Part shown: positions 1,641-35,705 of the stretch, in pieces
Position numbering within the stretch: the stretch's first letter is position 1
Layout of the letters: the number at the start of each line of letters is the position of its first letter
Origin: Caldisericota bacterium
Lineage (GTDB): Bacteria > Caldisericota > JANLFM01
Reading direction: 5' to 3'
Length of the DNA: 64,000 nucleotides
Assembly: GCA_024655865.1 (NCBI GenBank)
Contig: JANLFM010000004.1
Span: 19,040 to 83,039, forward strand
The notes under the pieces: model-generated
The model's database searches: none
The model's input: only the letters and a program-made list of their open reading frames with translations
What the model was told of the DNA's origin: nothing
Program-made: the position numbers and the translations under genes

Positions 1641-2543
1641 TTAAGCCTTCATAAATTTTGCAAGTTCTTCTTGCCATAAAGGCGCTGGCATAGTTAGAAA
1701 AAGAGTCGAGTAGGAGGGGCGTGGCGCAGGTCGAGATAATTGGAGAGTCTTAATGGGTTCAACCTTTTTAGAAATTTCAGCCAACTGTAAAATAGCCTGT
1801 GCAAATTCATACCAAGAAATCCCGTTCCCTGCATCATCGGTGTAATGGTGAATACCATACCAGCCAGTCTGAATTAAATCAGCGATTGCCCGGGAAAGGC
1901 TTTTGGTGTGCGTCGGAGAGCCTATCTGGTCGTCTACAACCTCCAGGCATTCCTTTTCCCTTGCCAATTTCAAGATCGTAGTGACGAAGTTTTTTCCATA
2001 TTTTCCATAAAGCCAACTTGTGCGCACGATGTAAAAACGGGAACAATGCCACTCTACGAATTTCTCCCCAGCGAGTTTGGTGTATCCGTACCAGTTTATG
2101 GGATTAGGTGGATCCAAGGGGCGGTAAGGGGTTTTCTTCGTGCCATCGAAGACGTAATCCGTGCTGATTTGAACCAGCTCACATTTTTTATCTTCACAGG
2201 CTAAAGCCAGGTTCTGCACTCCTAAGGCGTTAATTGCGTAAGCCAGGTCCCTCTCTACTTCAGCCTGATCCACGTTGGTGTAAGCGGCGCAGTTAATCAC
2301 AATTTGCGGATGAAAATGCTCAATGGCTTCAAAAACTGCCTTGCGGTCAGTAATATCAAGCTCCTGCCTGCCTAAAGGGATTACATCATGCCCCTGGTCC
2401 CTTAAAATTGGGACGAGGTCCTGCCCAAGCATCCCTTTGGCACCGGTGACCATTATCCTCATTATTTGCTCCAGAACCCCTTGCTCTCTTTTTGCAGTCG
2501 TTCCTTTAAGGGCTTCCACCAATGAGAATTGTTCATATACCAC
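1641..2543 (-). CDS. rfbD: dTDP-4-dehydrorhamnose reductase; probable true start at the internal MRIMVTGAKG (~2462), overlapping the rfbB stop
   Basis: Has the MVTGAKGMLG Rossmann motif and RmlD-like length and composition. It is adjacent to rfbB and rfbC. Confidence 0.85.
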   Translation of the reverse strand: MVYEQFSLVEALKGTTAKREQGVLEQIMRIMVTGAKGMLGQDLVPILRDQGHDVIPLGRQELDITDRKAVFEAIEHFHPQIVINCAAYTNVDQAEVERDLAYAINALGVQNLALACEDKKCELVQISTDYVFDGTKKTPYRPLDPPNPINWYGYTKLAGEKFVEWHCSRFYIVRTSWLYGKYGKNFVTTILKLAREKECLEVVDDQIGSPTHTKSLSRAIADLIQTGWYGIHHYTDDAGNGISWYEFAQAILQLAEISKKVEPIKTLQLSRPAPRPSYSTLFLTMPAPLWQEELAKFMKA

Positions 2544-3460
2544 TCCACCGTGCGCCGAATACCTTCCTCAAAGGAAGTAGCTGGGTTCCATCCCAGTTCA
2601 GATTCGATTTTGGTGTTGTCCAAAGCATAGCGAAAATCATGGCCTGGGCGATCGGGGACAAATTCAACCATTTCCTCGCTCTGCCCCATTATTTTCAGCA
2701 CCTCTCGAACAACCTCGATGTTGTGCTTCTCGCATTTCCCCCCTATATTGTAGGCCTCACCAGGCTTTCCTCTCTCCAGGATCAGGTCAATCGCTCGGCA
2801 ATTATCCTCCACGAAAAGCCAGTCCCGGACATTCAACCCCTGTCCATAAACGGGGACCTTCTTTCCCTCAATCAAATTTGTGATCATCAAGGGAATGAGC
2901 TTCTCCGGGAATTGATAAGGCCCATAATTATTCGAGGGTCGAGCAATGCACACTGGAAGCCCATAAGTGGTGAAATAGGATTGAACGAGAAGGTCCGCTG
3001 CTGCTTTGGAGGCGGAGTAGGGAGAACGAGGACGAAAGGGGTCGGTTTCCTTAAAAAGGCCCTCTTCACCCAATGCGCCATAGACCTCATCAGTGGAGAT
3101 ATGGACAAATTTTTTGATCCCGTGTTTCAGGGCTGAATTCAAGAGGACCTGGGTTCCCATAACGTTGGTTTTTATAAAAGGAGCTGCATCCAGAATGGAC
3201 CTATCCACGTGGCTTTCCGCCGCAAAGTGAACCACAGCCTCAACTCCCTCCAGGGCTTCTTCGAGCCTTTCTGCATCTTCCACCCTGCCGTGAACGAATC
3301 GGTATCGGGCCTCATTCTCAATGTCCTTCAGGTTCTCAATGTTCCCGGCGTAAGTCAGGGCATCAAGGTTTACGATTTCCACATCAGGGTGTTTATTTAG
3401 CATGTAGCGGATGAAATTTGATCCAATAAAACCATACCCTCCGGTTACCAGGATTTTCAT
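2462..3460 (-). CDS. rfbB: dTDP-glucose 4,6-dehydratase
   Basis: Begins MKILVTGGYGFIGSNF, carries YSASKAA (YxxxK) and is ~330 aa. Confidence 0.9.
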   Translation of the reverse strand: MKILVTGGYGFIGSNFIRYMLNKHPDVEIVNLDALTYAGNIENLKDIENEARYRFVHGRVEDAERLEEALEGVEAVVHFAAESHVDRSILDAAPFIKTNVMGTQVLLNSALKHGIKKFVHISTDEVYGALGEEGLFKETDPFRPRSPYSASKAAADLLVQSYFTTYGLPVCIARPSNNYGPYQFPEKLIPLMITNLIEGKKVPVYGQGLNVRDWLFVEDNCRAIDLILERGKPGEAYNIGGKCEKHNIEVVREVLKIMGQSEEMVEFVPDRPGHDFRYALDNTKIESELGWNPATSFEEGIRRTVEWYMNNSHWWKPLKERLQKESKGFWSK

Positions 3461-3957
3461 GGCATATCCTCCAATTTAAATTTGGAATGGGGATCGTTCT
3501 CGTGGCGCACCTCATCAACTGGTTCTTTTTTGCCACGCCCAGCGTAGAGGCGATTGGGAAAATTTAGCACCAGTCCATCTTTCCCCCCCACGTTTTTGTA
3601 TGCATGGACCACTCGAGGGGGCACAATCAGGCAAGCAGGCCGCGATTCCCCCAAAAGCAATTTAATATGGAGACCGTAAGATGTAGACTCCGGCCTGTTG
3701 TCCCAGAGATGCACCTCAAAATCAGAGGGCCCGAGGAAAGCGAAAAAATCGCTTTGCTCCAGGTGCTCGTGAGGGCCCCTGGCTATTCCGGGAAGGGTTA
3801 AGGAGATATAGGACATTACCGGGACATATTCCCTTAATCCTGCCTCTTCCAGAAAATCCAGGCGGAAGGTTTCCATAAGCCAACCTCGCTGATCCTGGAA
3901 TTTTGTAACGTCCCACATCACAACTCCTTCAATTTCCAGCTTCTGAATAGGAATCAT
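3457..3957 (-). CDS. rfbC: dTDP-4-dehydrorhamnose 3,5-epimerase
   Basis: Cupin protein of 166 aa, RmlC-like, positioned between rfbB and rfbA. Confidence 0.85.
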   Translation of the reverse strand: MIPIQKLEIEGVVMWDVTKFQDQRGWLMETFRLDFLEEAGLREYVPVMSYISLTLPGIARGPHEHLEQSDFFAFLGPSDFEVHLWDNRPESTSYGLHIKLLLGESRPACLIVPPRVVHAYKNVGGKDGLVLNFPNRLYAGRGKKEPVDEVRHENDPHSKFKLEDMP

Positions 3958-5042
3958 AGCTCCACCTCGCTGTAGTCTCCAACCATTAACCTCAAAGCCC
4001 GATGTTTGTCGTGTCCTTTGATCCTTGCCTGGCGGCCAACCACGCTGTCCTCAATACGCTCCACATTTTCCAGAAAGCTGTTTTCCAGAATTACTGAGTG
4101 TTCTATGTCCACGTGCTTCAAAGTGCACCCGTTACCAATCGAGGTGTAAGGGCCAATGAAGGAATTCTCTACTTGTGACCCTTCTCCGAGAATTGCCGGC
4201 CCTCTGATAGTGGAATCCCGAACTACAGCTCCTTTTTCAATCTGTACCCTCCCGCTTATTGAGGTGTTAATAACTTCTCCCTCAATTTGCCTTTTGGCGT
4301 AAGTATCCAAAACTATGGTGTTCGCTTCTAATAGGTCGTCCTTTTTTCCAGTATCGAGCCACCAGCCCTCCACAATTTTGGGGTAGATTTTGCCTCCGGA
4401 GTTCAAAAGCTCCTGAATGGCATCGGTAATCTCCAACTCTCCACGCCAGGAAGGTTTGATCTTCTCGATTGCTTTGTGGATCTTCGGGGAAAAAATGTAC
4501 ACCCCCACAAGCGCCAAGTTCGAAGGGGGCTCCTTGGGCTTTTCAATTAACCTTTGCACCTTGCCCTGTCCATCCAAAACTGCCACACCAAAAGCCCTAG
4601 GGTCCGGAACTTCTTTTAAGAAGATTACGGCATCGGCTTTCTCCCTCTTGAAAATCTCCATCCCCTCCTGGATGCCTTCCTGCAGTAAATTGTCGCCTAG
4701 ATACATCACAAAGGGGCAATCTCTAAGAAAGGGTTGGGCGATTTTCACGGCATGAGCGAGGCCCGCCGGCTTATCCTGATACACATAAGTAAGCTCCATC
4801 CCCCATTTTGAGCCATCTTTGAGAAAAGCCTTGACGTCCTCCCCTGTCTCCGGGGCGATGATGACCACGGTGTCTTTAATTCCACCCTCTCCCAGATGGC
4901 CGAAGACATAGGAAAGTATCGGCCGATTGGCCACCGGGATTAATTGTTTTGCGGTGGTAAAGGTAAGGGGTCGTAGGCGGGTTCCCTTCCCGCCGCTAAG
5001 AACTAAACCCTTAAATTGATCCATTTCTTCCAACAATGTCAC
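3954..5042 (-). CDS. Glucose-1-phosphate thymidylyltransferase, long form with a C-terminal left-handed beta-helix
   Basis: Has the LSGGKGTRLRPLT nucleotidyltransferase motif. The 362-aa length and C-terminal hexapeptide-repeat region match the archaeal/long type. Confidence 0.8.
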   Translation of the reverse strand: MTLLEEMDQFKGLVLSGGKGTRLRPLTFTTAKQLIPVANRPILSYVFGHLGEGGIKDTVVIIAPETGEDVKAFLKDGSKWGMELTYVYQDKPAGLAHAVKIAQPFLRDCPFVMYLGDNLLQEGIQEGMEIFKREKADAVIFLKEVPDPRAFGVAVLDGQGKVQRLIEKPKEPPSNLALVGVYIFSPKIHKAIEKIKPSWRGELEITDAIQELLNSGGKIYPKIVEGWWLDTGKKDDLLEANTIVLDTYAKRQIEGEVINTSISGRVQIEKGAVVRDSTIRGPAILGEGSQVENSFIGPYTSIGNGCTLKHVDIEHSVILENSFLENVERIEDSVVGRQARIKGHDKHRALRLMVGDYSEVEL

Positions 5043-9614: not shown

Positions 9615-10928
9615 ATGGACAAAGAGATTATAAAGCAAGTTATAGTCGAGTCTCAGGAATCCAAATTGCCTGAGATCGTCCCCAGGGATATTGAGATTCC
9701 TCTTTCTTCCCAAAAGATCATTACGATTACGGGGCCGAGAAGGGTTGGGAAAACATATCTTGTCTTCTATTCAATACGCAATCTTATCGAGCAAGGAATC
9801 CCAAGGGAAAGGATTATATACCTCAACTTTGATGACCCCAGGCTTTTGCCCTTTTCCGCAAAGGATGCGGAACTTATTCTTGAAGCCTATCAAGAACTCT
9901 ATCCTGAATATAGGGAAGAGACTAATTATATCTTCCTTGATGAAATCCAGAACGTGAAAGACTGGGAGATAGGGATAAGAAGGCTGTACGATACCAGAAG
10001 ATTTAGAATATTTCTCACGGGTTCTTCCTCGAAATTGTTGGGCAAGGAGATAGCAACTCAGTTAAGGGGAAGGGCATTAAGCTATGAACTCCTCCCCTTC
10101 TCTTTTAAAGAGATTCTCTGGGCAAAAGGAATAAAGGATTATAAAAGTCTTTTCTACTCTCAAGAAAGGTTCCGCATAAAGAAATATCTGGAAGAGTATT
10201 TAGAAATGGGAGGGTTTCCCGAGGTTGTCTTAGAGGATGCCTTAGACATAAAGATAAGGACATTGAGAGAATATGTGGAGACCATATTTTTTAGGGATTT
10301 AGTGGAACACTACAATATCAAAAACCAATTGCTATTAAGAGAGCTTATCAGATACCTTAGCACGAACACCGCTTCTATATTCTCCTTAAATTCTTTCTAC
10401 AAATGGATAAAAGAGATCTATCACATCACCCCGAGGACCCTATTGAACTATATTGGTCATCTTGAGGACATAGGGCTTTTCTTTTTCACAAGGAGGTTCT
10501 CCTTCTCTTTAAAGGAGCAGGCCAAAACTCTAAGAAAGTGCCATATTGTAGATAATGGCATAAGACTCGCCTATGGATTTAGGTTCAGCGAAGACAAAGG
10601 CAAAAATCTGGAAAACTCTGTCTTTTTGGAACTTGCCCATAGAAAAGTCCGGAATCCCTTTATGGAGATATTTTACTGGCAGGATTACAGAGGAAAAGAA
10701 GTAGACTTTGTAGTTACAGAAGGTAAAAGAGTGACATCCCTCATTCAGGCCTGCTTTAAAATTGAGGATATTAAAGCTAAAGAGAGGGAAATATCATCTC
10801 TTATTAAGGCTTCAGAGGAATTGAGATGCGCCAACCTTCTTGTAATAACCCTCGACTACGAGAAAGAAGAAGTAATTAATGATAAAAGACTAACCTTTAT
10901 GCCCTTCTGGAAGTGGGCTTTATTATGA
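9615..10928 (+). CDS. AAA+ ATPase of the AAA_14/DUF4143 (COG1373) family with a C-terminal PD-(D/E)xK-like domain
   Basis: Has the Walker A motif GPRRVGKTY and Walker B motif IFLDEIQ. The C-terminus carries ...YWQDYRGKEVDFVV...K, typical of the restriction-endonuclease-like DUF4143. GC is ~42% against ~56% in the flanks. Confidence 0.75.
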   Translation: MDKEIIKQVIVESQESKLPEIVPRDIEIPLSSQKIITITGPRRVGKTYLVFYSIRNLIEQGIPRERIIYLNFDDPRLLPFSAKDAELILEAYQELYPEYREETNYIFLDEIQNVKDWEIGIRRLYDTRRFRIFLTGSSSKLLGKEIATQLRGRALSYELLPFSFKEILWAKGIKDYKSLFYSQERFRIKKYLEEYLEMGGFPEVVLEDALDIKIRTLREYVETIFFRDLVEHYNIKNQLLLRELIRYLSTNTASIFSLNSFYKWIKEIYHITPRTLLNYIGHLEDIGLFFFTRRFSFSLKEQAKTLRKCHIVDNGIRLAYGFRFSEDKGKNLENSVFLELAHRKVRNPFMEIFYWQDYRGKEVDFVVTEGKRVTSLIQACFKIEDIKAKEREISSLIKASEELRCANLLVITLDYEKEEVINDKRLTFMPFWKWALL

Positions 10929-11080
10929 ATAAAACTCTGATGATGAGCGCTCTGCTTCGGCTGCCACTTGAAAAGGGCTCTGAAAGGGAATTCACCCCCT
11001 TACCTGTTTGATGTCCATTTTCGGAGGAAGGCTCCCTTTAGGCAAAGCTGGAAATTTAGCTTTAGACTTCTCTCCATGAA

Positions 11081-11146
11081 ATGGTATAATTTTGTTCAGT
11101 AGAGTGAACAAAAATGGTACGATTTTGTTCAGTAGAGTGAACAAAA
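11081..11146 (+). promoter_or_regulatory. Two tandem 33-bp units, each containing the palindrome TTGTTCAgtagagTGAACAA, immediately upstream of the second ATPase gene; also contains TATAAT
   Basis: Read directly: atggtataattttgttcagtagagtgaacaaaa followed by atggtacgattttgttcagtagagtgaacaaaa. Confidence 0.4.
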
Positions 11147-11156
11147 TTTAAACGAG

Positions 11157-12557
11157 GTGCCTATGATAGATTTAGAGCGATATAACCCATGGTGGATTAG
11201 GAGTGAGGGTATGGAGACCGATCCTCAATGGCGAGCCTTCAGGGATTCGCGCCTTCGTTGGCAGCCGAAAATCCTTCAGAAATTAGATTTACAAAAAGAA
11301 GGGGTTTATACTCTCCGTGGTCCCCGTCAGGTAGGGAAAACCACGCTGATTAAGATCTGGATCTCTCAACTCCTTGAAAATCACGTTGACCCCAGGGCAG
11401 TGTTTTATTACTCCTGTGATCTTTTAAACGACAAAAAGGAACTTTTTGCGGTTCTGGAACAATATCAAAACATCTCTCTTAATCGAGGGTTCAAGCATCG
11501 CTATATCTTTCTTGATGAGGTAACCCTCATTGAGGACTGGCAGCACGCTGTGAAGCAGGCAGTTGACCTGGGATGGATGCAAAATACCACAATCCTGGCA
11601 TCTGGTTCTTCGGCCATAGACCTGCGCAGGGGTGCTGAGAGGATGCCTGGGCGTCGTGGGCGAGCGGAAAAGTTAGACTGGGTGCTTATGCCTCTTTCCT
11701 TTGGAGAATTCTTAAAGTATTGCTATCCGGAGCTCCCAACATTAACCATCTCCCTTGATCTTCTTTGTAACGGGGTCCAAATTAAAAATCTCGTTTCCGA
11801 TTGGTTAAGCTTTGCTTTAAGGTTCCAGTTTGCTTTAGAAGAGTATCTCAAAACGGGCGGCTTTCCTCTGGCACTGGAGCGATACTTAAGACAGAGAGAG
11901 GTTGATGAGAGCCTCAGACAGGCCTATCTATCGGTTTTGCGCTCGGATGTGGAAAAATTGCGCCGGAACCGTGGAATCTTGAACAGTCTCCTGGCTCGAA
12001 TAGTGATTACAGAAGGCTCCCCTCAAAGCTGGCAAAACCTCAGTAAAGATGCGGGGATTGGCTCCCCGAACACAGCAATAGATTATGTAGAAATTTTAGG
12101 GGATTCCTTCTTACTTTTTGTTCTCCAGGCCCTGGATCGAAACAGGAAAGCAGCAGAACCAAAAAAGGACAAAAAAATTTATTTTTGCGACCCTCTGGTT
12201 CGAGATGCGATCTCGAAGGATTTGGGTTTACCTGGGCTTCCTCTGGAGCATAAAGTAGAGGCTGCTGTGGGGTTTCATCTAATCAGGCTTTTTGAGAAAA
12301 ACCCTGAGGAAGGGTTATCTCATTTAAACAAAGTTTATTACTGGCGCAATGTTAAGGGAAAAGAAGTAGACTTTGTTGCCCTTTATGAGAAAGGGGTTCT
12401 TCCTCTTGAAGTTAAGTTTCAAGAAAGTATCAACAAAGAAGATTATTCCCTTATTCAGCGCAGTTTCGGTTCAGGCGTAGTGGTCACCAAAAACGTTTTG
12501 GAGCGAAGGGAGGGTATCCTTTTTCTTCCTGCAGCCCTTTTCCTTCAAATGGAGTAA
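11157..12557 (+). CDS. AAA+ ATPase AAA_14/DUF4143 (COG1373) paralogue; likely ATG start at 11163
   Basis: Has the Walker A motif GPRQVGKTT and Walker B motif IFLDEVT. The C-terminus carries YYWRNVKGKEVDFVA...EVK. Confidence 0.75.
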   Translation: MPMIDLERYNPWWIRSEGMETDPQWRAFRDSRLRWQPKILQKLDLQKEGVYTLRGPRQVGKTTLIKIWISQLLENHVDPRAVFYYSCDLLNDKKELFAVLEQYQNISLNRGFKHRYIFLDEVTLIEDWQHAVKQAVDLGWMQNTTILASGSSAIDLRRGAERMPGRRGRAEKLDWVLMPLSFGEFLKYCYPELPTLTISLDLLCNGVQIKNLVSDWLSFALRFQFALEEYLKTGGFPLALERYLRQREVDESLRQAYLSVLRSDVEKLRRNRGILNSLLARIVITEGSPQSWQNLSKDAGIGSPNTAIDYVEILGDSFLLFVLQALDRNRKAAEPKKDKKIYFCDPLVRDAISKDLGLPGLPLEHKVEAAVGFHLIRLFEKNPEEGLSHLNKVYYWRNVKGKEVDFVALYEKGVLPLEVKFQESINKEDYSLIQRSFGSGVVVTKNVLERREGILFLPAALFLQME

Positions 12558-18263: not shown

Positions 18264-20804
18264 TTATTTTACACCGATCCAGGAGCTGATTTCTTTTAAG
18301 TAAAGTTCCACGAGCCTCCTTGCCACTTCCTCCGTATCCGCTTCCGCATTTATATGAAGCAGGGGGCGGTCCTTATCGGGCAGGACCAGCACCCAGGAGT
18401 TATCGAAGTAGATCTTCACGCCGTCCAGGGCCACGATCTTGTTCCTGGCGTTCTCCTCTAAAAGTCTCCGAATTACGGTTCCCTTCATCTCCCAGGGGCA
18501 GGCCAGGTGTTCCCGCACCATGGCTCTGGGCTTAATCAACGAGGAGACCTCCCTCAGGATGGCCTTCTCCAGGGAAAGGAGCTCCAGAATTTTAGCCAGG
18601 GCAAACATTCCGTCCGTGAAGGGCTGGAACTCCGGGAAGATGTACCCGTTTTTCACCTCTCCCACAAAAACGGCCTCTTTCTTCTTAGCCTCTAACATCA
18701 TGGCGCTGCTTGAGGTCTTGGTGTAGATTACCCTTCCTTCAAATGACCTGGCGATCTCTTCCAGGGTAGAGGAAGCGGTAACCGGAACGGCGATTGTTTT
18801 CCCCGGTTGAGCCTTGAGCACAAGATAGGCGATGCAGGCCAGGCTCTCATCGCCGGAAAGTATCCTACCCCGATCGTCCACCAGAAAGAGCTTCTCTGCT
18901 CCGGCATCCAGCATGAAGCCGGCGTTGCATTTTAAGGAAACGACAATCTCGGCCAGGGTTTTTAGGGCTTCCTCGTACTCTTCCTCCGACTTGGTAATCT
19001 TCCTTTCGTCCAGATAGGCGTTGAGGGCCACTACCTCCACCCCCATCTTTCCAAAGAGCATGGGGAGGACAGTGGAAGCAGTGCCGAAACCATAATCCAC
19101 CACGACCTTAAACCGCGCATCCCTCAAAGCATCAAGGTTTAGGGCGTGAAGGAATGATTCCTGATAGTACTCCAGGATCCTCGAGGGGAAGGAAATTGTC
19201 CCCACTTCTTCGGGGCTCACCCTCAGGAACTCCTCCCGGAAGTAAGAGTTTTCAATAGCTTTTTCCCTCACCGGAGGCAGGTCCAGACCAGTCTCGTCGA
19301 AAAACTTGATATCTATTACCTGGGGGTTAAAGGGAGATTTGCGCACGTGAACCCCTCCCGCTGCCTCCAGGCTGACGATAGCCTGTCTGGCAACAGGAAT
19401 GGCCACCTGTCCCAAATCGTAGACGTTAATGCCCGTTGAAAGGAGGCCGGCCATCAGCGAGCGGTGAATCAAGCGAGATGCCCTGTGCCCATCGTAAGAG
19501 GATATGACCGCCTGACCCTTTTTCAAGAGGGTGCCGTAAGCTGCCCCCACTTTAGCCGCGAACTCCGGGGTGATTTCCTGGTTGGCCAGGCCGGTGATGC
19601 CGTAATTGCCAAAGAGGTTCCTCGTCCAGCGATCCCCCCAGATCAGGCTTCCGGTGAGGTAAGCACCTCCCTCCACGTGTTTGTAGGGCCAAACCCTCAC
19701 ACCACTCGATACGGTGGCTTTGTTTCCGATCAAGCAACCGTCGGCGATTACGCTTCCTTCCTGGATGGAAGCTATGGACCCGACCTTCACCCCGTATCCC
19801 AAAATCGCCTTCTTGATGCGCGCATCTTTGCCGATCTCGCAATTGCTCCAGATAACGGAATCAGTAATCTGTGCACCTTCCCAGATCACCGTTCGGGGTC
19901 CGATCACGGAATCATGGAGGTAAGCGCCCTCCCCCACCTGCGAGCCTTCCCCTAAAATCACCGTTCCCCTGAGCCTTGCCCGGGGATGGATTTTCACTCC
20001 TTCTCCCACCCAAACGTCCATTCCCACACGGTTTATCCTGGTTCCTTCCACCTTCAAATTCACTTCCCCGTGGAGGACGTCCATGTGCGCCAGGCGGTAG
20101 TCTTCGAGGTTGCCGATATCCCTCCAGTATCCTGGTGCAATCAATCCATGAAGGGAGAATCCCTCTTTGAGAAGAATGGGAAAGAGGTCTTTGGAAAAGT
20201 CAAAGGGATAATCAGGGGGGATTTTCTCTAAGACTTCTGGTTCCAGAACGTATATTCCAGTATTTACCGTGTCTGAGAAGACCTCTCCCCATGTGGGTTT
20301 TTCTAAGAAAGAGAGAACCCTGCCGTCCTCTCCGGTGATCACGATGCCGTAAGCCCGGGGGTCTTTGACCCTGGTCAGGAGAATGGTAGCGGAGGATTTC
20401 TTCTCTTTATGGAAACGGAGGGCGGCTTCAAGGTCGAAATCCGTGAGCACGTCCGCGGAAATTACAAGGAAAGTGTCCTCCAGGTAGGGCTGAGCTTTCT
20501 TTACGCTGCCTGCGGTGCCAAAATCCGCCTCAGGTTTAATGTAATCAATCCTCAGGCCCCATCTTTTCCCATCCTGGAAATAGTTCTGGATGGCTTCCGG
20601 TTGGAAGTAGAGGAGCACAATCAACTCCTTGAAACCGTGGTTTTTCAAAAGCTCCACCACGTGTTCCATGATGGGGCGATTAATTACCGGGACCATGGGT
20701 TTGGGGATGTTCATAGTTAAAGGACGGAGGCGCGTGCCGAAACCTCCCGCCATAATCACTGCTTTCATGTGCGCACCCCCTTTCTTTCGCTCATGCCATC
20801 TCAC
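18264..20804 (-). CDS. Bifunctional sugar-1-phosphate nucleotidyltransferase / phosphohexomutase (GDP-mannose pyrophosphorylase-PMM fusion type)
   Basis: N-terminus carries MAGGFGTRLRPLT plus LbH repeats. The C-terminal ~450 aa have the phosphoglucomutase/phosphomannomutase fold. Confidence 0.8.
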   Translation of the reverse strand: MRWHERKKGGAHMKAVIMAGGFGTRLRPLTMNIPKPMVPVINRPIMEHVVELLKNHGFKELIVLLYFQPEAIQNYFQDGKRWGLRIDYIKPEADFGTAGSVKKAQPYLEDTFLVISADVLTDFDLEAALRFHKEKKSSATILLTRVKDPRAYGIVITGEDGRVLSFLEKPTWGEVFSDTVNTGIYVLEPEVLEKIPPDYPFDFSKDLFPILLKEGFSLHGLIAPGYWRDIGNLEDYRLAHMDVLHGEVNLKVEGTRINRVGMDVWVGEGVKIHPRARLRGTVILGEGSQVGEGAYLHDSVIGPRTVIWEGAQITDSVIWSNCEIGKDARIKKAILGYGVKVGSIASIQEGSVIADGCLIGNKATVSSGVRVWPYKHVEGGAYLTGSLIWGDRWTRNLFGNYGITGLANQEITPEFAAKVGAAYGTLLKKGQAVISSYDGHRASRLIHRSLMAGLLSTGINVYDLGQVAIPVARQAIVSLEAAGGVHVRKSPFNPQVIDIKFFDETGLDLPPVREKAIENSYFREEFLRVSPEEVGTISFPSRILEYYQESFLHALNLDALRDARFKVVVDYGFGTASTVLPMLFGKMGVEVVALNAYLDERKITKSEEEYEEALKTLAEIVVSLKCNAGFMLDAGAEKLFLVDDRGRILSGDESLACIAYLVLKAQPGKTIAVPVTASSTLEEIARSFEGRVIYTKTSSSAMMLEAKKKEAVFVGEVKNGYIFPEFQPFTDGMFALAKILELLSLEKAILREVSSLIKPRAMVREHLACPWEMKGTVIRRLLEENARNKIVALDGVKIYFDNSWVLVLPDKDRPLLHINAEADTEEVARRLVELYLKEISSWIGVK

Positions 20805-20815
20805 TTATTTTACTC

Positions 20816-20922
20816 AAAAATGGGGACTGTCCCTATATTTTTTATGCGGGATGGGGAGCCGCTTTCCGGCCTCATTTTTCCAATTTTTGCGAATAAAAAA
20901 TGGGGACAGTCCCTATTTTTCA
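20816..20922. promoter_or_regulatory. Two copies of a ~26-bp palindrome AAAAATGGGGAC(T/A)GTCCCTAT(A)TTTTT in the promoter region of the NTase/PMM gene
   Basis: Read directly at 20816-20843 and 20896-20922. The same core recurs at 24830 and 25000. Confidence 0.35.
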
Positions 20923-24829: not shown

Positions 24830-25027
24830 AAATAGGGACTGTCCCCAATTATTTCGAGACTGAGAGAACTCAACAATTCCTGAGTTCCTGTCGCTCGCAT
24901 TAACAGATTAACGACTTTTATGAAAATGATACAATTTTCTTCTAAAAACTAAAAATAGCGTCTCCTAAACCAGATCAGAAAAGAGATAGCGGCCCCACAA
25001 AAAATGGGGACTGTCCCCAATTATTTG
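24830..25027. promoter_or_regulatory. Two further copies of the GGGACTGTCCCCAATTATTT palindrome in the divergent GH57 / glgA promoter region
   Basis: Read directly at 24830-24854 and 25000-25027. Confidence 0.35.
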
Positions 25028-25061
25028 ACAGGGGGTTCCTCTTTCTCTAATATCAAAAACT

Positions 25062-27500
25062 GTGAAAATAACATTCGTTACCGCAGAAGCTGCTCCATTT
25101 GCCAAGATCGGGGGCCTGGGTGATGTAGCCAGCTCCCTTCCCAAAGCGCTCGCCCAGAAAGGTCACGCTCTTTCCGTGATCATTCCCGGATATTCCCTGA
25201 TCCCCGGGATCAAGGAGATGGAGGAAATTGCTAACTTCTCCGTTCCCTGGCAGGGGGGTGAGGAGCGCGTTCTTCTGCGCAAAAAGAGCCTCTGGGACAT
25301 CGATTTTTACTTTTTGGAAAACCAGAGGTACTCGAGCCGGGAGAAGATTTATGGCTATCCGGACGACGCCCTGCGCTTCGCCTTTTTTTCCCGATCCACC
25401 CTGGAGTCCCTGAAGGTCATAGGATTCCCTGAGCTCCTCCACCTCCACGACTGGCACAGCTGTCCCATTTTCCTCTATCTGGGAACAGTTTACAAGGATA
25501 ACCCCGATTATTCCCGCCTGGCCACGGTTTTCACGATCCACAATTTGGCCTTTCAGGGTATCCAGGATCCGCACTTCCTGAATGAAGCGGGAATTCCGAT
25601 TTCCCCTCATGATGAGAGGGTGGAGTTTTACGGAAAGGTGAACCTCCTCAAAGCCGGGATCCTCTCCTCGGATATGGTGACTACGGTGAGCGAAACCTAC
25701 GCCCGGGAAATCCAGACCCCTGCTTTAGGCATGGGGCTGGAGGGAGTCCTCGCCCTGCGCAAAAAACAGCTCGTGGGCATTACAAACGGCATCGACACCG
25801 AGGAGTTTGACCCCGCGGAATTCGGATATAAATCGGGAGATCCTTCCTCCTTTAAGGTCAGAGCCAAGCAGGTTCTTCAGCAAAAGCTGGGCCTGGAGGT
25901 AAATGAGAAAATTCCACTTTTGGCCTTGGTTTCCCGCCTGACCGATCAGAAAGGCCTGGACCTTTTCCCTCCCATCCTGGACCAGCTCATGGCCAAAGAT
26001 GTGCAGCTTGTGATCCTGGGACAGGGCGAGGAGCGCTATCAAGCCTTTTTTAAGGAAGCGGCATCAAGGTACCCGGAGAGGATCTCCCTGAATTTGACCT
26101 TCGATCCGGAACTCGCCAAACTGATCTACGCTGGAGCGGACATCTTCCTCATGCCCTCTCGTTTCGAGCCCTGTGGCCTGGGGCAGATGATTGCCATGCG
26201 CTACGGAACGATTCCTGTGGTCAGGAAAACCGGAGGATTGGCGGACACCGTAATTCATTTCGACCGGGAGGGAGGAACTGGAAACGGTTTCCTCTTCAGC
26301 CAGTATGAACCCCGCTCTTTCTTAGAGGCTATAATAGAGTGCCTGGAAGTCTACCGTGACAGGAGCCTCTGGATACAGCTTGTGCGCAATGCCCTATCAA
26401 GCGATTTCTCCTGGGGAAAGACGGTTTTTAAGTACGAGGAGGTTTACCGCCGGGCCATTTACCTGCACGCCAAAAAAATAGGGACCGTGAATCCCCCGGA
26501 AATCCGCAAGGATCCGATTTTGGAGGAGTGGGCAATCATTGCCAAGGGGAGGACAAAAAGGCCCAGCGATTACAAGTCAAAAGAGGACGAGTATCAGAAG
26601 AACCAGCTGGAGAACTGCCCCTTCTGCCAGGGAAACGAAAAAATGACCCCGGATGAGCTTTATGCTTTTCGCCCCAACGGAGGGAAGCCCAACTCCCCCG
26701 GCTGGGAAGTGCGCGTTTTCGACAACAAATACCCGGCTTTGATGAAGGATGAGGACCCGGCACACGGGCACTCCTGGCTCTTCACGCACATCTCCGGCGT
26801 GGGAGCGCATGAGGTGATTGTGGAGACTCCGGACCATCATAGGGACCTTCCTGATCTTTCTGACGAACAATTGATTCATGTCCTCAGGGCATACCGGGAA
26901 AGGTATCGCGTTTTATCCCTGAACAAGGACCTGCGCTATATTTTGATTTTCCGCAACCACGGGCGTTCCGCAGGGGCATCCCTGTCCCACCCTCATTCCC
27001 AGTTAATTGCCACACCCATCGTTCCCAGGCGCATCAAGGAGGAACTGGATTCCGCCCACACTTTCTACGAGCATACCGGGGAATGCATTTTCTGCGCCTT
27101 AATCAGGGAGGAACTGGAACAAAAGCAACGGGTGATCTTAGAGAATCAGGATTTTCTGGCCTTCGCCCCCTACGCCTCGCGCTTCCCCTTTGAAATCACG
27201 GTCATCCCCAAAAGACACCAGGCGGCATTCTCCGATCTGGAAAACGGGGAGCTCCTTTCCCTGGCACAAATGCTCAAGGATGTCCTGGGCCGGTTGAAGA
27301 GAGGAGTTAATGACCCTCCTTACAATATGATGATTCACTCCGCACCCCTGGGCTTCCTTTACATCCCTTACTATCACTGGCATATCGAGATCATTCCCAG
27401 GCTGACAACGCCCGCTGGTTTCGAGTGGGGAACGGACTTTTATATCAACCCCACCCCCCCGGAGGAGGCGGCCCGATTCCTTAAAGAGGGAAAGATCTAA
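25062..27500 (+). CDS. glgA: Fusion protein: glycogen/starch synthase (GT5, ~aa 1-470) + GalT-like HIT-family hexose-1-phosphate nucleotidyltransferase/phosphorylase (~aa 500-812)
   Basis: The N-terminus carries KIGGLGDV and a GT-B fold. The C-terminus carries CPFCQGNE (zinc site), ...SHPHSQL (GalT His-Pro-His active site) and the HIT-like fold. Confidence 0.8.
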   Translation: MKITFVTAEAAPFAKIGGLGDVASSLPKALAQKGHALSVIIPGYSLIPGIKEMEEIANFSVPWQGGEERVLLRKKSLWDIDFYFLENQRYSSREKIYGYPDDALRFAFFSRSTLESLKVIGFPELLHLHDWHSCPIFLYLGTVYKDNPDYSRLATVFTIHNLAFQGIQDPHFLNEAGIPISPHDERVEFYGKVNLLKAGILSSDMVTTVSETYAREIQTPALGMGLEGVLALRKKQLVGITNGIDTEEFDPAEFGYKSGDPSSFKVRAKQVLQQKLGLEVNEKIPLLALVSRLTDQKGLDLFPPILDQLMAKDVQLVILGQGEERYQAFFKEAASRYPERISLNLTFDPELAKLIYAGADIFLMPSRFEPCGLGQMIAMRYGTIPVVRKTGGLADTVIHFDREGGTGNGFLFSQYEPRSFLEAIIECLEVYRDRSLWIQLVRNALSSDFSWGKTVFKYEEVYRRAIYLHAKKIGTVNPPEIRKDPILEEWAIIAKGRTKRPSDYKSKEDEYQKNQLENCPFCQGNEKMTPDELYAFRPNGGKPNSPGWEVRVFDNKYPALMKDEDPAHGHSWLFTHISGVGAHEVIVETPDHHRDLPDLSDEQLIHVLRAYRERYRVLSLNKDLRYILIFRNHGRSAGASLSHPHSQLIATPIVPRRIKEELDSAHTFYEHTGECIFCALIREELEQKQRVILENQDFLAFAPYASRFPFEITVIPKRHQAAFSDLENGELLSLAQMLKDVLGRLKRGVNDPPYNMMIHSAPLGFLYIPYYHWHIEIIPRLTTPAGFEWGTDFYINPTPPEEAARFLKEGKI

Positions 27501-33211: not shown

Positions 33212-34453
33212 ATGAAAAAAGAATTTCCAAAAGGCCTAAAGGTCTATCTGGCGCTGATCATCACAGGGGGTTCTGCTGCCCTCTATCTTACTTTCCCTTA
33301 CTGGCACGCAACTCTTATCTGGGATTATCTAATCTTTGCCCTCATCAGCTATTTTGCCTATATTCTTCTCGTCAAACTTCCAAAGCTCAACGCATACCTT
33401 TCCGTGGCCTCCCACATGAACTTCGCAGCACTTTTCCTCTTCGGTCCCTTCGCCATCTGGATCCCTGCTCTAACCGGGGCTCTCCCGGATAGCCTCCCCT
33501 TAAAGAAACCCTACATTTACCTCTTCAACGGAGCTCAGTTCGCCCTCTCCTACGGCCTGGCGGCCCTGACTTATTACGGCGCCGGAGGAACTGCCCTCTC
33601 TTTATCTTTTGCGGTTCCCATAAAAACCATCCTCCCCGCTCTCCTGAGCGGATTAGTTTATTCCTTAGTCAATGTCGGCCTGACTGCAGGAGCGATCTCC
33701 TTTGACCAGGGGCCTTTTGTTAAGGTTTTCTGGAACGTCATCAAGTGGGAATTCCCCAACATGCTGATCGCCGTCCCCTTCGCCCTCTTTCTGGCCTACA
33801 TCTTCACCCAGTTAGGCTATCTGGGACTGGCGATCCTCTTTTTCCCCCTGCTCGCCTCCCGCTATATCTTCCAGGCCTACATTCGTATTCAGGAAACCTA
33901 TTCCGAGACCGTCCGTGCCCTGATGGCCACGGTGGACAAAAAGTTCGGGCAGCCCGGCCGCAACCAGAAGGTCTACCAGTACGCGCTCCAGGTTAGCCAG
34001 AGTCTGGGTCTTTCCCCGGAGGAAGCTGAAATTTTAGGATATGCCAGCTACTTACGCCACATTGGATTAATAGGGATTGAAAACAGCATGCTGGAGTTCA
34101 CCCTTTCCCAGCCCATCTGGTCTTCGAGCCCCATAGTCGTTAATGCCTTACTTGCTGGCTCTCAGATCTTGGAGCGGACCGAGACTTTGAAAAGGGCCGC
34201 CCCCTTCATCCGGCTACACCATGAAAAATGGGATGGAACTGGCCCCTGGGGTTTGAAGGAGGAGCAAATTCCTCTCGGGGCGCGCATTATCTCCGCCTGT
34301 GAATTCCTGGAGGAATTAGAATACCGTGGAAGTAAAAGGGAGGAAATTTTGAAACACTTGAGGGAAAGGAGCGGAAAGCATTATGATCCCCGCGTGGTGC
34401 AGGCTCTTATTTCCCTTCTGGAAAAGGAGAGAGATGAACAGAAAACTTCTTAA
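33212..34453 (+). CDS. 7TM-receptor-fused HD-GYP-like domain protein (degenerate: HHEKWDGTGPW)
   Basis: An N-terminal polytopic domain is followed by a C-terminal HD-type domain with the LRHIG...HHEKWDG motif. Confidence 0.7.
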   Translation: MKKEFPKGLKVYLALIITGGSAALYLTFPYWHATLIWDYLIFALISYFAYILLVKLPKLNAYLSVASHMNFAALFLFGPFAIWIPALTGALPDSLPLKKPYIYLFNGAQFALSYGLAALTYYGAGGTALSLSFAVPIKTILPALLSGLVYSLVNVGLTAGAISFDQGPFVKVFWNVIKWEFPNMLIAVPFALFLAYIFTQLGYLGLAILFFPLLASRYIFQAYIRIQETYSETVRALMATVDKKFGQPGRNQKVYQYALQVSQSLGLSPEEAEILGYASYLRHIGLIGIENSMLEFTLSQPIWSSSPIVVNALLAGSQILERTETLKRAAPFIRLHHEKWDGTGPWGLKEEQIPLGARIISACEFLEELEYRGSKREEILKHLRERSGKHYDPRVVQALISLLEKERDEQKTS

Positions 34454-35705
34454 TTACCTTTTAATTCTCTCCCCGGCACTTTTAATCTCCGGGTGGTACG
34501 CATTTTCTCTTGACCCGGGCTCTTTTTTGGGGGTCGTGCCCTTAGCGGTTTTGGCTTTCCTTTTGCGTTCTCTGGAAGTCTCCTATTTTGGGGAAGTGAT
34601 TTCCCCCGCAAGCGCCGTCACCCTAACTTCCCTTTTTCTTTTCCCCGCTCCCCAGGCCCTTGTGGTTCTCTTTGCCTCTCTTCTTGGAGGCCTTGCTTTT
34701 CTCCGCTTTTCTCACATCCAAGAGGACGGTTTCCTGAAATCCATAGCCTCCGAACTGGGCGGTTTCCTTGGGGCTTTGCTCCTCTATCGCCTATATTTCT
34801 CATCCCAGTTAATTGGCATCTCGTTAAGCACGTATTCGCCATCTCTTCTCTTGGCCCTGGGGGCCGTCTTTGGGGGATATGCTCTTACCTCCAGTATCCT
34901 TTCTCTCATTAGCTCATTTGTCCTCCGCACCAACTTAAGGGATACCCTGAGAGTGCAGCTTTCTCCTTTCTATTTCGGCCTCTATTTCGTTCTGGGAGTG
35001 AGCCTGCTCCTCCTCGTCCCCACATATTCCGCCTTTGGCGTTTTGGGTTTCCTTTTGGGCTTGATTCCCCTGTGCGTATTTTTCTTCGCCTCCAAGCTCT
35101 ACTTTCACACTCAGGAGGTTTACCGTCAGTCCCTGCGCTCGCTGGTGGGAGTGATCGAAGCTATGGACCCCTACACGCACGGCCATTCCGACCGGGTGGC
35201 CCTCATCTCCCTGGAAATTGGGAAGAGGATGCCTTTATCCCAGTCAAGGTTGCAGCTTTTGGAATACGCCGCCTACTTGCACGACATGGGCAAGGTCTCC
35301 ATCGATCCCGCCATCCTGCGCAAACCGGAGGCCCTTTCCGAGGAGGAGTGGAAAATAATCAGATCCCACCCTGAGGATGGGGTAGAGATCCTGCGAAACG
35401 TGAAATTCCTCAAGCCCATCCTGCCCTGGATCGAGCATCATCATGAGAAGGCCAACGGTACCGGTTACCCCTCGGCTCTCCCCTTAAAGAAAATTCCCCT
35501 GGAAGCCCGAATTATCACCCTGGCCGATGCCTTTGACGCCATGATCTCCAATCGCCCTTATCGCCCTGCCCTGACGGTGGAGGAGGCGAAAAGGGAGATC
35601 GAGAGGAACACGGGTTCCCAGTTCGACCCCATCCTGGTGAAAAAGTTCCAGCGCCTCATAAAGAAAAAGGACTTTGTTCGGACGCTGGGCTTCCCCAAGC
35701 GGTGA
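34434..35705 (+). CDS. 7TM-receptor-fused HD-GYP c-di-GMP phosphodiesterase
   Basis: Carries HGHSDRV...YLHDMGK...HHEKANGTGYP, the canonical HD-GYP motif. The N-terminal ~250 aa are polytopic. Confidence 0.8.
   Translation: MNRKLLNYLLILSPALLISGWYAFSLDPGSFLGVVPLAVLAFLLRSLEVSYFGEVISPASAVTLTSLFLFPAPQALVVLFASLLGGLAFLRFSHIQEDGFLKSIASELGGFLGALLLYRLYFSSQLIGISLSTYSPSLLLALGAVFGGYALTSSILSLISSFVLRTNLRDTLRVQLSPFYFGLYFVLGVSLLLLVPTYSAFGVLGFLLGLIPLCVFFFASKLYFHTQEVYRQSLRSLVGVIEAMDPYTHGHSDRVALISLEIGKRMPLSQSRLQLLEYAAYLHDMGKVSIDPAILRKPEALSEEEWKIIRSHPEDGVEILRNVKFLKPILPWIEHHHEKANGTGYPSALPLKKIPLEARIITLADAFDAMISNRPYRPALTVEEAKREIERNTGSQFDPILVKKFQRLIKKKDFVRTLGFPKR

Follow-up and report, generated by a model that had tools for sequence, protein, structure and literature searches.

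Glycogen synthase fused to an ADP-glucose-phosphorylase-like domain in an uncultured Caldisericota bacterium, and the corresponding gene pair in other bacterial phyla

A 64,000-nucleotide stretch of a Caldisericota genome assembly (GenBank GCA_024655865.1, contig JANLFM010000004.1, positions 19,040 to 83,039; hereafter the window) contains a gene in which a glycogen synthase of family GT5 (GlgA) is joined to a domain resembling galactose-1-phosphate uridylyltransferase (GalT), a member of the HIT superfamily. The locus raises the question of what such a domain does at the end of a glycogen synthase: whether it makes the activated glucose used in elongation, as an earlier note on this DNA had suggested, or removes it. 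Our confidence in what the fusion is, namely a glycogen synthase joined to a domain of the ADP-glucose phosphorylase type, is high. The direction in which it works in the cell, probably that of removal, is assigned with moderate to low confidence.

The two domains

The gene is a single uninterrupted open reading frame (ORF) in the ORF listing of the window, with a GTG start and, counting the stop codon, the coordinates given in Table 1. No stop or frameshift interrupts the junction (residues 465–485, nt 26454–26516). Pfam and NCBIfam place both domains in the 812-residue product, as the earlier note had described it, and all three motifs quoted there are present: KIGGLGDV at residues 15–22 (nt 25104–25127), CPFCQGNE at residues 519–526 (nt 26616–26639) and SHPHSQL at residues 642–648 (nt 26985–27005). 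An AlphaFold2 model calculated from a 111-sequence alignment has a mean predicted local distance difference test score (pLDDT) of 93.1 and a predicted template modelling score (pTM) of 0.78. Around the linker it has a helix at residues 451–473 and a strand at residues 480–483, in a block with pLDDT 84–90. In the prediction the last GlgA helix therefore extends through an ordered linker and is followed almost at once by the first HIT-domain strand. When the model was compared with solved structures using Foldseek, no single chain was found to hold both domains.

The N-terminal domain contains Glyco_transf_5 (residues 2–230, E = 7e-73) and Glycos_transf_1 (residues 279–435) in Pfam, and residues 1–464 match the NCBIfam model TIGR02095, glgA 'ADP-glucose type', with 507.4 bits (cut-off 328.45). 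Identity to E. coli GlgA is 37%. The E. coli glycogen synthase residues K15, D21, D137, H161, N162, R300, K305 and E377 are all matched, by K15, D21, D130, H160, N161, R292, K297 and E369 respectively, while Y355 is replaced by F347. The N-terminal half of the model (pLDDT >90) superimposes on E. coli glycogen synthase (2qzs) with a TM score, normalised to the target, of 0.90 and a root mean square deviation of 2.3 Å. In its GT-B fold and in the checked catalytic and ADP-glucose-binding residues the domain resembles bacterial GlgA, such as the E. coli enzyme (2QZS), and with it plant starch synthase SS4 (6GNE). The domain appears to be a catalytically intact glucan synthase of the ADP-glucose type, a donor preference that is suggested by homology. 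It misses the cut-offs of the GlgA equivalog models (best NF001898, 513.8 bits against 603), and is thus best regarded on its sequence as a member of a divergent GlgA subfamily and not as an equivalog of the modelled GlgA groups. Compared with known GlgA, the fusion has an extra C-terminal HIT-family domain of 335 residues. In classical glg operons glgA lies beside glgC, glgB or glgP; the fusion gene is not so placed.

The C-terminal domain (C-domain) contains GalP_UDP_transf (residues 479–655, 1.5e-18) and GalP_UDP_tr_C (residues 666–775). Its best sequence match in the PDB is Arabidopsis At5g18200 (1z84/2h39; E = 4e-78, 266 bits), well ahead of the GalTs of P. aerophilum (167 bits), E. coli (110 bits, 1e-30) and human (88 bits), and identity is 40% to At5g18200 as against 27% to E. 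coli GalT. The C-terminal half of the model matches 1z84/2h39 with a target TM score of about 0.9. The His-x-His nucleophile motif noted earlier survives careful alignment: H643, H645 (the nucleophile) and Q647 form an H-x-H-x-Q motif that is invariant in the alignment (H166/H168/Q170 in domain numbering). A first zinc site is predicted at C519, C522, H583 and H643, which align with At5g18200 residues that we in part presume to be its metal ligands. A second metal site is predicted at C675, C678, H719 and H772; it is aligned in At5g18200, whereas E. coli GalT has no cysteines there. In a ten-sequence alignment this second Cys-x2-Cys, together with N-x-[YF]-P-A-L, SAGAS-x-SH-x-HSQ and DPPYN, is found in At5g18200 and the C-domain but not in E. 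coli GalT, whose N-D-F-A-A-L segment at the position of N-x-[YF]-P-A-L we take to be involved in uridine binding.

At5g18200 (PDB 1Z84, 1ZWJ, 2H39) therefore has the same H-x-H-x-Q motif, Cys2His2 zinc site and second Cys-x2-Cys/His site as the C-domain, and its covalent His-AMP ping-pong chemistry is expected in the C-domain too. It differs in being a stand-alone cytosolic protein of roughly 350 residues, whereas the C-domain forms one polypeptide with a glycogen synthase and is encoded in a glycogen locus of the GH57 type. To our knowledge At5g18200 has no established physiological partner, and ADP-glucose phosphorylase has had no assigned role since its characterisation in 2006. The plant protein is described as an ADP-glucose phosphorylase and not a GalT in two papers that refer to its characterisation (McCoy 2006, cited in PMC6329318 and PMC4136846). 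Both At5g18200 and the class-I GalTs are homodimers with active sites between the subunits (bioRxiv 10.64898/2026.09.13.751320).

On the basis of similarity scores, fold and motifs, the C-domain can be assigned to the clade of ADP-glucose phosphorylase, as the earlier note had allowed, and is not a true GalT. It appears to be a catalytically intact homologue of At5g18200 (ADP-glucose:phosphate adenylyltransferase, EC 2.7.7.36), with an ADP specificity that its homology makes probable. Public records name the fusion protein either 'galactose-1-phosphate uridylyltransferase' or 'starch synthase', each name covering one half; the former implies an ordinary Leloir GalT (EC 2.7.7.12) fused to GlgA by chance. 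Residues 475–781 do pass the NCBIfam model TIGR00209, galT_1, scoring 139 bits where 102 are required, although this model probably captures the At5g18200 clade as well, and the fold, nucleophilic histidine and zinc site are shared with the class-I GalTs of E. coli (1HXP) and human (5IN3), which form a branch of the same superfamily. However, the bacterial GalT model NF008724 gives only 165 bits against a cut-off of 448, the closest solved homologue is reported to lack GalT activity (McCoy 2006, cited in PMC6329318), and the extra metal site and the remaining motifs agree with that homologue and not with E. coli GalT. The surroundings are also wrong for the Leloir pathway. No galK, galE or galM was seen among the annotated window ORFs scanned, and in the 20-kb loci fetched from other phyla, which were probed for alpha-glucan genes only, the partners identified were glgA, GH57 or glgC. 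A Leloir enzyme is thus scarcely credible, and identity as a true GalT was rejected on scores, motifs and genomic context.

Recurrence of the fusion and of the unfused gene pair

A search of 5.8 billion proteins found the fusion kept in nine clusters at 90% identity, comprising 53 sequences, some of them fragments, which are 49–99% identical to the window protein. The clusters have lengths of about 811–815 residues and 97–100% query coverage, and come from JGI, NCBI, ENA and Logan assemblies. The alignment of the fusion proteins runs unbroken across the junction, ...AIYLHAKKIGTVNPPEIRKDP.... The metagenome-assembled genomes (MAGs) in which the copy is 99% identical bear the label Caldisericota or Coprothermobacterota, and an 84%-identical fusion lies on a 493-kb contig (L089) whose surrounding 22 kb are syntenic with the window. 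An assembly or frameshift artefact was rejected, given the continuous ORF and a junction kept in 53 sequences from independent datasets. The fusion is a real, bifunctional product of an uncultured bacterium, and it does exist in other genomes.

Fusions also occur in other lineages. In the complete 2.88-Mb genome of Phosphitispora sp. TUW77, an 834-residue protein has the two domains in reverse order, GalT-like then GlgA, and a second, ordinary GlgA is encoded 2.4 kb downstream (L086, 14948–16435). A third, divergent lineage is represented by P0017 (852 residues), in which, as in the window protein, GlgA precedes the GalT-like domain; its halves are 36–38% identical to that protein, as against 45–55% for unfused homologues, and the first Cys-x2-Cys is gone from its HIT domain. 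In P0268 (858 residues, from the representative library) a GalT-like part 44% identical to the window C-domain is fused to a GH57 enzyme of the roughly 720-residue type, which is 32% identical to the GH57 enzyme encoded after glgC in locus L084. The GlgA/GalT-like fusion has thus had at least two further independent origins. That the domain has repeatedly been fused to enzymes of glycogen metabolism, and in either order, is strong evidence for a functional link with alpha-glucan metabolism. The recurrent linkage to a synthase of the ADP-glucose type also lends indirect support to ADP-glucose phosphorolysis as the probable activity of the C-domain.

When 1.84 billion cluster representatives were scanned exhaustively with HMMER, 8771 homologues of the C-domain were obtained. 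The best 150 of these 8771 are nearly all stand-alone proteins of about 330–350 residues, the exceptions being the GlgA fusion, P0268, tandem or repeat GalT-like proteins (P0241, P0242, P0354) and a few with an extra N-terminus. Tandem GalT-like units within one polypeptide are seen in P0121/P0241 (599 residues) and P0242 (871 residues); the first copy in P0121 is without Cys-x2-Cys and has a degenerate histidine motif. Two adjacent GalT-like genes were also observed in a MAG labelled Ozemobacteraceae (L063, 9992–12036).

The stand-alone homologues were examined by a profile scan with the C-domain against one genome per GTDB species, which gave at least 80 loci with homologues about 50% identical. 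Among the matches listed, glgA is the immediate same-strand neighbour in 24 of 80 loci, with gaps of 0–290 bp, most of them below 120 bp, and in 17 of the 58 loci with complete flanks. The resulting share of about 30% is indicative and not an unbiased frequency, and covers stand-alone genes only, with none of the Caldisericota fusions. The adjacent glgA is downstream of the GalT-like gene in 20 of these 24 pairs and upstream in 4. The labels of the pairs span roughly a dozen phyla among the matches listed: Zixibacteria, Ignavibacteria, Thermodesulfobacteriota/'Deltaproteobacteria', Verrucomicrobiota, Elusimicrobia, Nitrospinota, Nitrospirota, Acidobacteriota, WOR-3, Stahlbacteria, Dormiibacterota, 'Fervidifonticultor' and Fervidobacterium. 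Both halves of the fusion have their closest unfused relatives encoded together on single contigs: in the metagenome loci L001 and L002, a glgA gene for 478 residues is followed 4 bp later by a GalT-like gene for 337 residues. The fusion is therefore the fused form of a pair of genes, for GlgA and an ADP-glucose-phosphorylase-like protein, that are adjacent in many bacterial phyla.

Three lineages have a second GT5 synthase gene near the fused or paired one: Phosphitispora (L086), L004 (820–2106) and L088 (105–1010). The unfused Phosphitispora GlgA passes the equivalog cut-off (606 bits against 603), whereas the fused copy of the window scores 514. This hints that the two copies are specialised paralogues, and an ordinary GT5 near the paired copy fits a specialised role for the latter.

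The wider surroundings are those of alpha-glucan metabolism, with GH57 enzymes of the branching, AmyA and 720-residue types and a cupin phosphoglucose isomerase as neighbours. The gene for a 64%-identical fusion in L090 is accompanied by an AmyA-type GH57 directly downstream and by the cupin phosphoglucose isomerase, while GT2, PlsY and nucleotidyltransferase-mutase genes are divergent from it, as in the window. The order in L087 (fusion 49% identical) is fusion, GH57 branching enzyme, AmyA-type GH57, GH57, and that in L088 is GT5, GH57, GH57, fusion. AmyA-type GH57 genes also lie beside stand-alone galT-like genes in L043, L045, L070 and L084. In two of these, L070 (Nitrospirae) and L084 (a MAG labelled Bdellovibrio), glgC, a 720-residue GH57, an AmyA-type GH57 and the GalT-like gene are in one operon, and this glgC passes curated cut-offs (608 against 458 bits; TIGR02091, 473 against 425). 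The L043 operon (Nitrospinota) consists of a GlgC fragment, two GH57 genes, the GalT-like gene and glgA. The gene following the galT-like gene in L070 (10924–12444, 506 residues), where glgA might be expected, has a weak match to class-II fructose-bisphosphate aldolase (43 bits).

The earlier note stated that no glgC is present in the window. This holds for canonical glgC, which was not found there by tblastn with the GlgC of E. coli and of L084. However, 64 kb is a small part of a genome, and the window does contain four other sugar-1-phosphate nucleotidyltransferases: two rmlA_long, one ManC-like and one nucleotidyltransferase-mutase fusion of 846 residues. The best of these reaches 135 bits on TIGR02091, against a cut-off of 425. 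The nucleotidyltransferase-mutase belongs to a large and widespread family of about 830 residues that is annotated as mannose-1-phosphate guanylyltransferase/phosphomannomutase; its closest solved relative is a UTP-glucose-1-phosphate uridylyltransferase, and translation probably begins at the ATG at 20768, giving 834 residues. It lies beside exopolysaccharide genes in the window. It flanks the fusion on the same side in three Caldisericota-like genomes, namely in the window, in L089 (3451–5955) and in L090 (5290–7788). In L004 a 50%-identical homologue (2103–4562) lies in one operon in the order GT5, nucleotidyltransferase-mutase, GalT-like, glgA, with a GH57 branching enzyme and a GH15 glucoamylase nearby. 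It is a possible supplier of nucleoside diphosphate (NDP)-glucose. No phosphorylase of family GT35 was found in the window and 91 loci, about 1.5 Mb in all, using its pyridoxal phosphate (PLP)-site motif and tblastn with E. coli GlgP; these are 10-kb neighbourhoods and not genomes.

Direction of the reaction

The reaction expected of the C-domain from its family is ADP-glucose + Pi <-> ADP + glucose-1-phosphate (G1P), where Pi is inorganic phosphate. His645 would attack the alpha-phosphate of ADP-glucose, releasing G1P and forming an AMP-enzyme, and phosphate would then accept the AMP to give ADP. The GlgA and HIT domains would share the ADP-glucose/ADP pair. We favour, with moderate confidence, the reading that the C-domain, driven by phosphate, drains ADP-glucose at the synthase, thereby braking synthesis and perhaps reversing GlgA. 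An ATP-driven nucleotidyltransferase would supply ADP-glucose, from which the fusion would elongate glycogen. When the supply stops, the drain would lower ADP-glucose and synthesis would halt, with the glucose returned as G1P and the nucleotide as ADP. The drain may also pull the reversible GlgA backwards, so that glycogen and phosphate give G1P, with ADP as a recycled carrier. Under ordinary conditions the fusion would not be a GlgC-free route to ADP-glucose.

This reading is based on the phosphate balance, on the behaviour of the plant enzyme and on the occurrence of GlgC in an operon with the GalT-like gene. The reactions of the C-domain and of GlgA sum to G1P + glucan(n) = glucan(n+1) + Pi, which has the equilibrium of glycogen phosphorylase: a Pi/G1P ratio of about 3.6 near neutral pH. 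In cells this ratio is usually around 100. Because the summed equilibrium is that of phosphorylase, and cellular Pi greatly exceeds G1P, phosphorolysis should be favoured. Taken singly, the GlgA reaction has an equilibrium of about 50–250 towards synthesis, and McCoy and colleagues in 2006 reportedly found for At5g18200 an equilibrium constant towards ADP and G1P of about 5, and of about 40 when Mg2+ was present. The plant enzyme AtADPGP is described as acting phosphorolytically, with a Michaelis constant of about 7 µM for ADP-glucose, and, targeted to plastids, lowered ADP-glucose five-fold in vivo (PMC4136846). The failure to find GT35 genes in the window and the 91 loci, and the second, ordinary GT5 gene in three lineages, also count in favour of this direction.

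Other enzymes are known that destroy an activated glucose donor and influence glycogen or starch levels, namely E. coli AspP/NudF and animal GDPGP1 (PMC4136846, PMC7041677). Hydrolysis by AspP, a Nudix enzyme, produces AMP and forfeits the energy of the bond, and GDPGP1 acts on GDP-glucose; unlike the C-domain, neither is fused to a synthase or encoded beside one.

A related possibility, which we consider less likely than not, is that the fusion or gene pair acts as a two-site, PLP-free alpha-glucan phosphorylase/synthase with ADP as recycled carrier. GlgA would act reversibly (glucan + ADP <-> ADP-glucose), the HIT domain would exchange ADP-glucose + Pi for ADP + G1P, and the direction would be set by whether the nucleotidyltransferase pumps ADP-glucose. 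The reaction of the PLP-dependent GT35 phosphorylases (GlgP/MalP) is the exact sum of the two domain reactions, and the carrier ADP would be comparable to the phosphate of PLP in those enzymes. GT35 and GT5 have the GT-B fold in common, and the model of the fusion has weak Foldseek matches to GT35. However, the fusion has no sequence relationship to GT35 and no PLP, and would need two sites and an ADP carrier, so the likeness would be one of mode and not of family. Such a role is compatible with the lack of GT35 in the gene clusters, with the second GT5 in three lineages, with the phosphoglucose isomerase and mutase genes nearby and with both orders of fusion.

Can the C-domain instead work in reverse, making ADP-glucose from ADP and G1P for the fused synthase, with ADP acting catalytically, ATP saved and GlgC bypassed? 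This was in essence the proposal of the earlier note. Consecutive reactions with a nucleotide cycling between the sites would suit a fusion in either order, and many of the hosts are energy-limited anaerobes. Besides the window, the 10 kb around the 24 adjacent glgA/GalT-like pairs among the matches listed also lack canonical glgC, and the GalT-like gene holds the position beside glgA that glgC often takes. However, the net reaction would be that of glycogen phosphorylase reversed, which is endergonic above a Pi/G1P ratio of about 3–4, far below that of cells; channelling or fusion cannot alter the thermodynamics, so unusual G1P/Pi ratios would be needed. The intact glgC in the operons of L070 and L084, the GlgC fragment in L043 and the nucleotidyltransferase-mutase in the window, with its homologue in the glgA and GalT-like operon of L004, all point to another source of the donor, and the plant enzyme consumes ADP-glucose in vivo (PMC4136846). 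A bypass of GlgC is therefore unlikely. The other part of that proposal, that the fusion signals coupling, is supported by the recurrent fusions and by the neighbouring unfused genes; the part in which the C-domain makes NDP-glucose for elongation is not. Coupling itself could be doubted, if fusion served co-expression, stoichiometry or co-localisation on the glycogen particle, and the C-domain carried out an independent salvage of ADP-glucose. The same domain is fused in P0268 to a GH57 enzyme, which uses no nucleotides, both domain orders occur with different linkers, so that no fixed geometry is required, and most homologues stand alone. We consider this decidedly unlikely, since the recurrent independent fusion to GlgA and the tight adjacency of the unfused genes across phyla argue for a shared ligand, and the linker is short and predicted to be ordered in a model with a pTM of 0.78. 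Finally, the domain might perform quality control, clearing wrong or surplus NDP-sugars made by promiscuous nucleotidyltransferases before the synthase misuses them. Several nucleotidyltransferases of uncertain specificity are encoded in the window, and such a role has been proposed for the animal HIT-family GDP-D-glucose phosphorylase: GDPGP1/mcp-1 turns GDP-glucose into G1P, its loss altering G1P and glycogen, according to PMC7041677 (citing Adler et al. 2011). However, the C-domain is much closer to At5g18200, the sole solved structure that it matches strongly, no VTC2/GDPGP1-type match was seen for it, and ADP-glucose is the correct donor of the synthase and not a contaminant. Quality control is thus very improbable.

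Several observations also weigh against the phosphate-driven drain itself. The lack of canonical glgC around the gene pairs, and the GalT-like gene in its place, have been noted above. About two thirds of the sampled stand-alone homologues, mainly from Acidobacteriota, have no glycogen gene nearby, and most Acidobacteriota loci among the matches listed have housekeeping neighbours instead of glgA. The ADP specificity of both domains is deduced from homology (40% identity to At5g18200) and from the association with the synthase. A looser 'glycogen metabolon' would accommodate both the GH57 fusion and linkers that vary. The steps catalysed by fused enzymes are usually consecutive, and on that ground a synthetic or a fully reversed pathway would be preferred to a simple drain. 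Thermotoga presumably has such a pair in addition to GlgC and an alpha-glucan phosphorylase, so that the pair would be no simple replacement of either.

The locus and its significance

The features of the locus are collected in Table 1.

Table 1 Features of the fusion locus; positions are those of the window
Feature	Position (nt)	Strand	Evidence or remark
Sugar-1-phosphate nucleotidyltransferase (LbH domain) + phosphogluco/phosphomannomutase fusion, 846 residues	18264..20804	-	Pfam, NCBIfam; 4 kb from the glycogen synthase fusion
GH57, alpha-amylase/4-alpha-glucanotransferase (AmyA) type, 619 residues	22924..24783	-	Pfam Glyco_hydro_57, AmyA-A_glucT_m, AmyA-gluTrfs_C
Palindrome (A/G)GGGACTGTCCCC	24834..24846	.	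51–63 bp upstream of the GH57 start codon
Palindrome GGGGACTGTCCCC then AATTATT	25006..25018	.	Lies near the fusion gene's -35 hexamer
Promoter-like TTGACA-17 nt-TAATAT	25025..25053	+	10/12 matches; ends 8 nt 5' of the GTG; conserved in L089
Glycogen synthase + ADP-glucose-phosphorylase-like fusion	25062..27500	+	ORF, Pfam, NCBIfam, AlphaFold2, full-length homologues
GT5 (GT-B fold) ADP-glucose-type alpha-1,4-glucan synthase, residues 1–466	25062..26459	+	TIGR02095, 2qzs fold match
Linker YLHAKKIGTVN, residues 467–477	26460..26492	+	AlphaFold2 secondary structure; kept among same-order fusions
At5g18200-type class-I GalT/HIT nucleotidyltransferase, residues 478–812	26493..27497	+	PDB sequence search, fold, alignment
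Stand-alone phosphomannomutase/phosphoglucomutase, 447 residues	29161..30504	-	Pfam PGM_PMM I–IV; NF007088 421 bits, below cut-off 618

The fusion gene is preceded by a promoter-like sequence that ends close to its GTG start, and no purine-rich stretch resembling a Shine-Dalgarno sequence is apparent from the -10 hexamer to the GTG. L089 keeps TTGACA-17-TAATAT followed by GTG (9965–10003). Because the promoter lies so close to the start codon, no Shine-Dalgarno sequence is seen and the arrangement is kept in L089, the mRNA may be leaderless and initiated at the GTG.

The AmyA-type GH57 gene is divergent from the fusion gene, as had been noted earlier, and the 278-bp spacer between them contains two copies of the palindrome GGGACTGTCCCC. 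The GGGGACnGTCCCC palindromes have the form GGGGAC-n-GTCCC(C/T), with a run of A on one side and a run of T on the other. Sites of the form GGGGACnGTCCC(C/T) occur four times in the 64 kb, against 0.42 expected; the other two are at 20822–20834 and 20902–20914, upstream of the nucleotidyltransferase-mutase gene. All four thus lie upstream of the genes for the nucleotidyltransferase-mutase, the GH57 enzyme or the fusion. The earlier note took those in the spacer for operators. The palindromes are real, but the closest relative, L089, has none at its fusion promoter and keeps two upstream of the nucleotidyltransferase-mutase gene (6011 and 6089), which weakens the case for an operator of the GH57/fusion pair. 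They resemble short bidirectional terminators of the A-tract/hairpin/T-tract kind; apart from such a terminator, a common operator or a small mobile palindromic element is conceivable.

Judged by its Pfam domains, the stand-alone mutase downstream of the fusion could interconvert G1P and glucose-6-phosphate. Elsewhere in the window, two stretches have a low GC content, 1–2000 (0.40) and 9615–12557 (0.42), against about 0.52 in the remainder. The second of these comprises two paralogous AAA_14/DUF4143 ATPase genes (9615–10928 and 11157–12557), inserted in a surface-polysaccharide cluster with the two rmlA_long and the ManC-like genes, epimerase/dehydratase, Wzy_C and Bac_transf. Two adjacent, slightly overlapping HD_5 (HD-GYP-like) genes at 33212–35705, one of them with MASE9, are kept in L089.

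The accessible part of a 2024 Chemical Reviews survey of prokaryotic alpha-glucan enzymes contains neither 'GalT' nor 'ADP-glucose phosphorylase', and literature searches found nothing on a link between GlgA and ADP-glucose phosphorylase. The two families and their chemistries are known, while the fusion architecture and the conserved gene pair are apparently new and never described before. The public annotation of the fusion protein can be corrected, since each current name describes only half of it.

The recurrent fusion to glycogen synthase gives ADP-glucose phosphorylase a concrete partner. If the two activities are coupled as we suggest, this would be a new control point, or a phosphorolytic route, in the glycogen turnover of many poorly studied phyla, among them Zixibacteria, Elusimicrobia, Nitrospirota, Nitrospinota, Thermodesulfobacteriota, Thermotogota and Caldisericota. 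If the pair acts as a two-site phosphorylase, it would provide many uncultured anaerobes with a route for mobilising glycogen and, at high G1P, with a means of building it without ATP.

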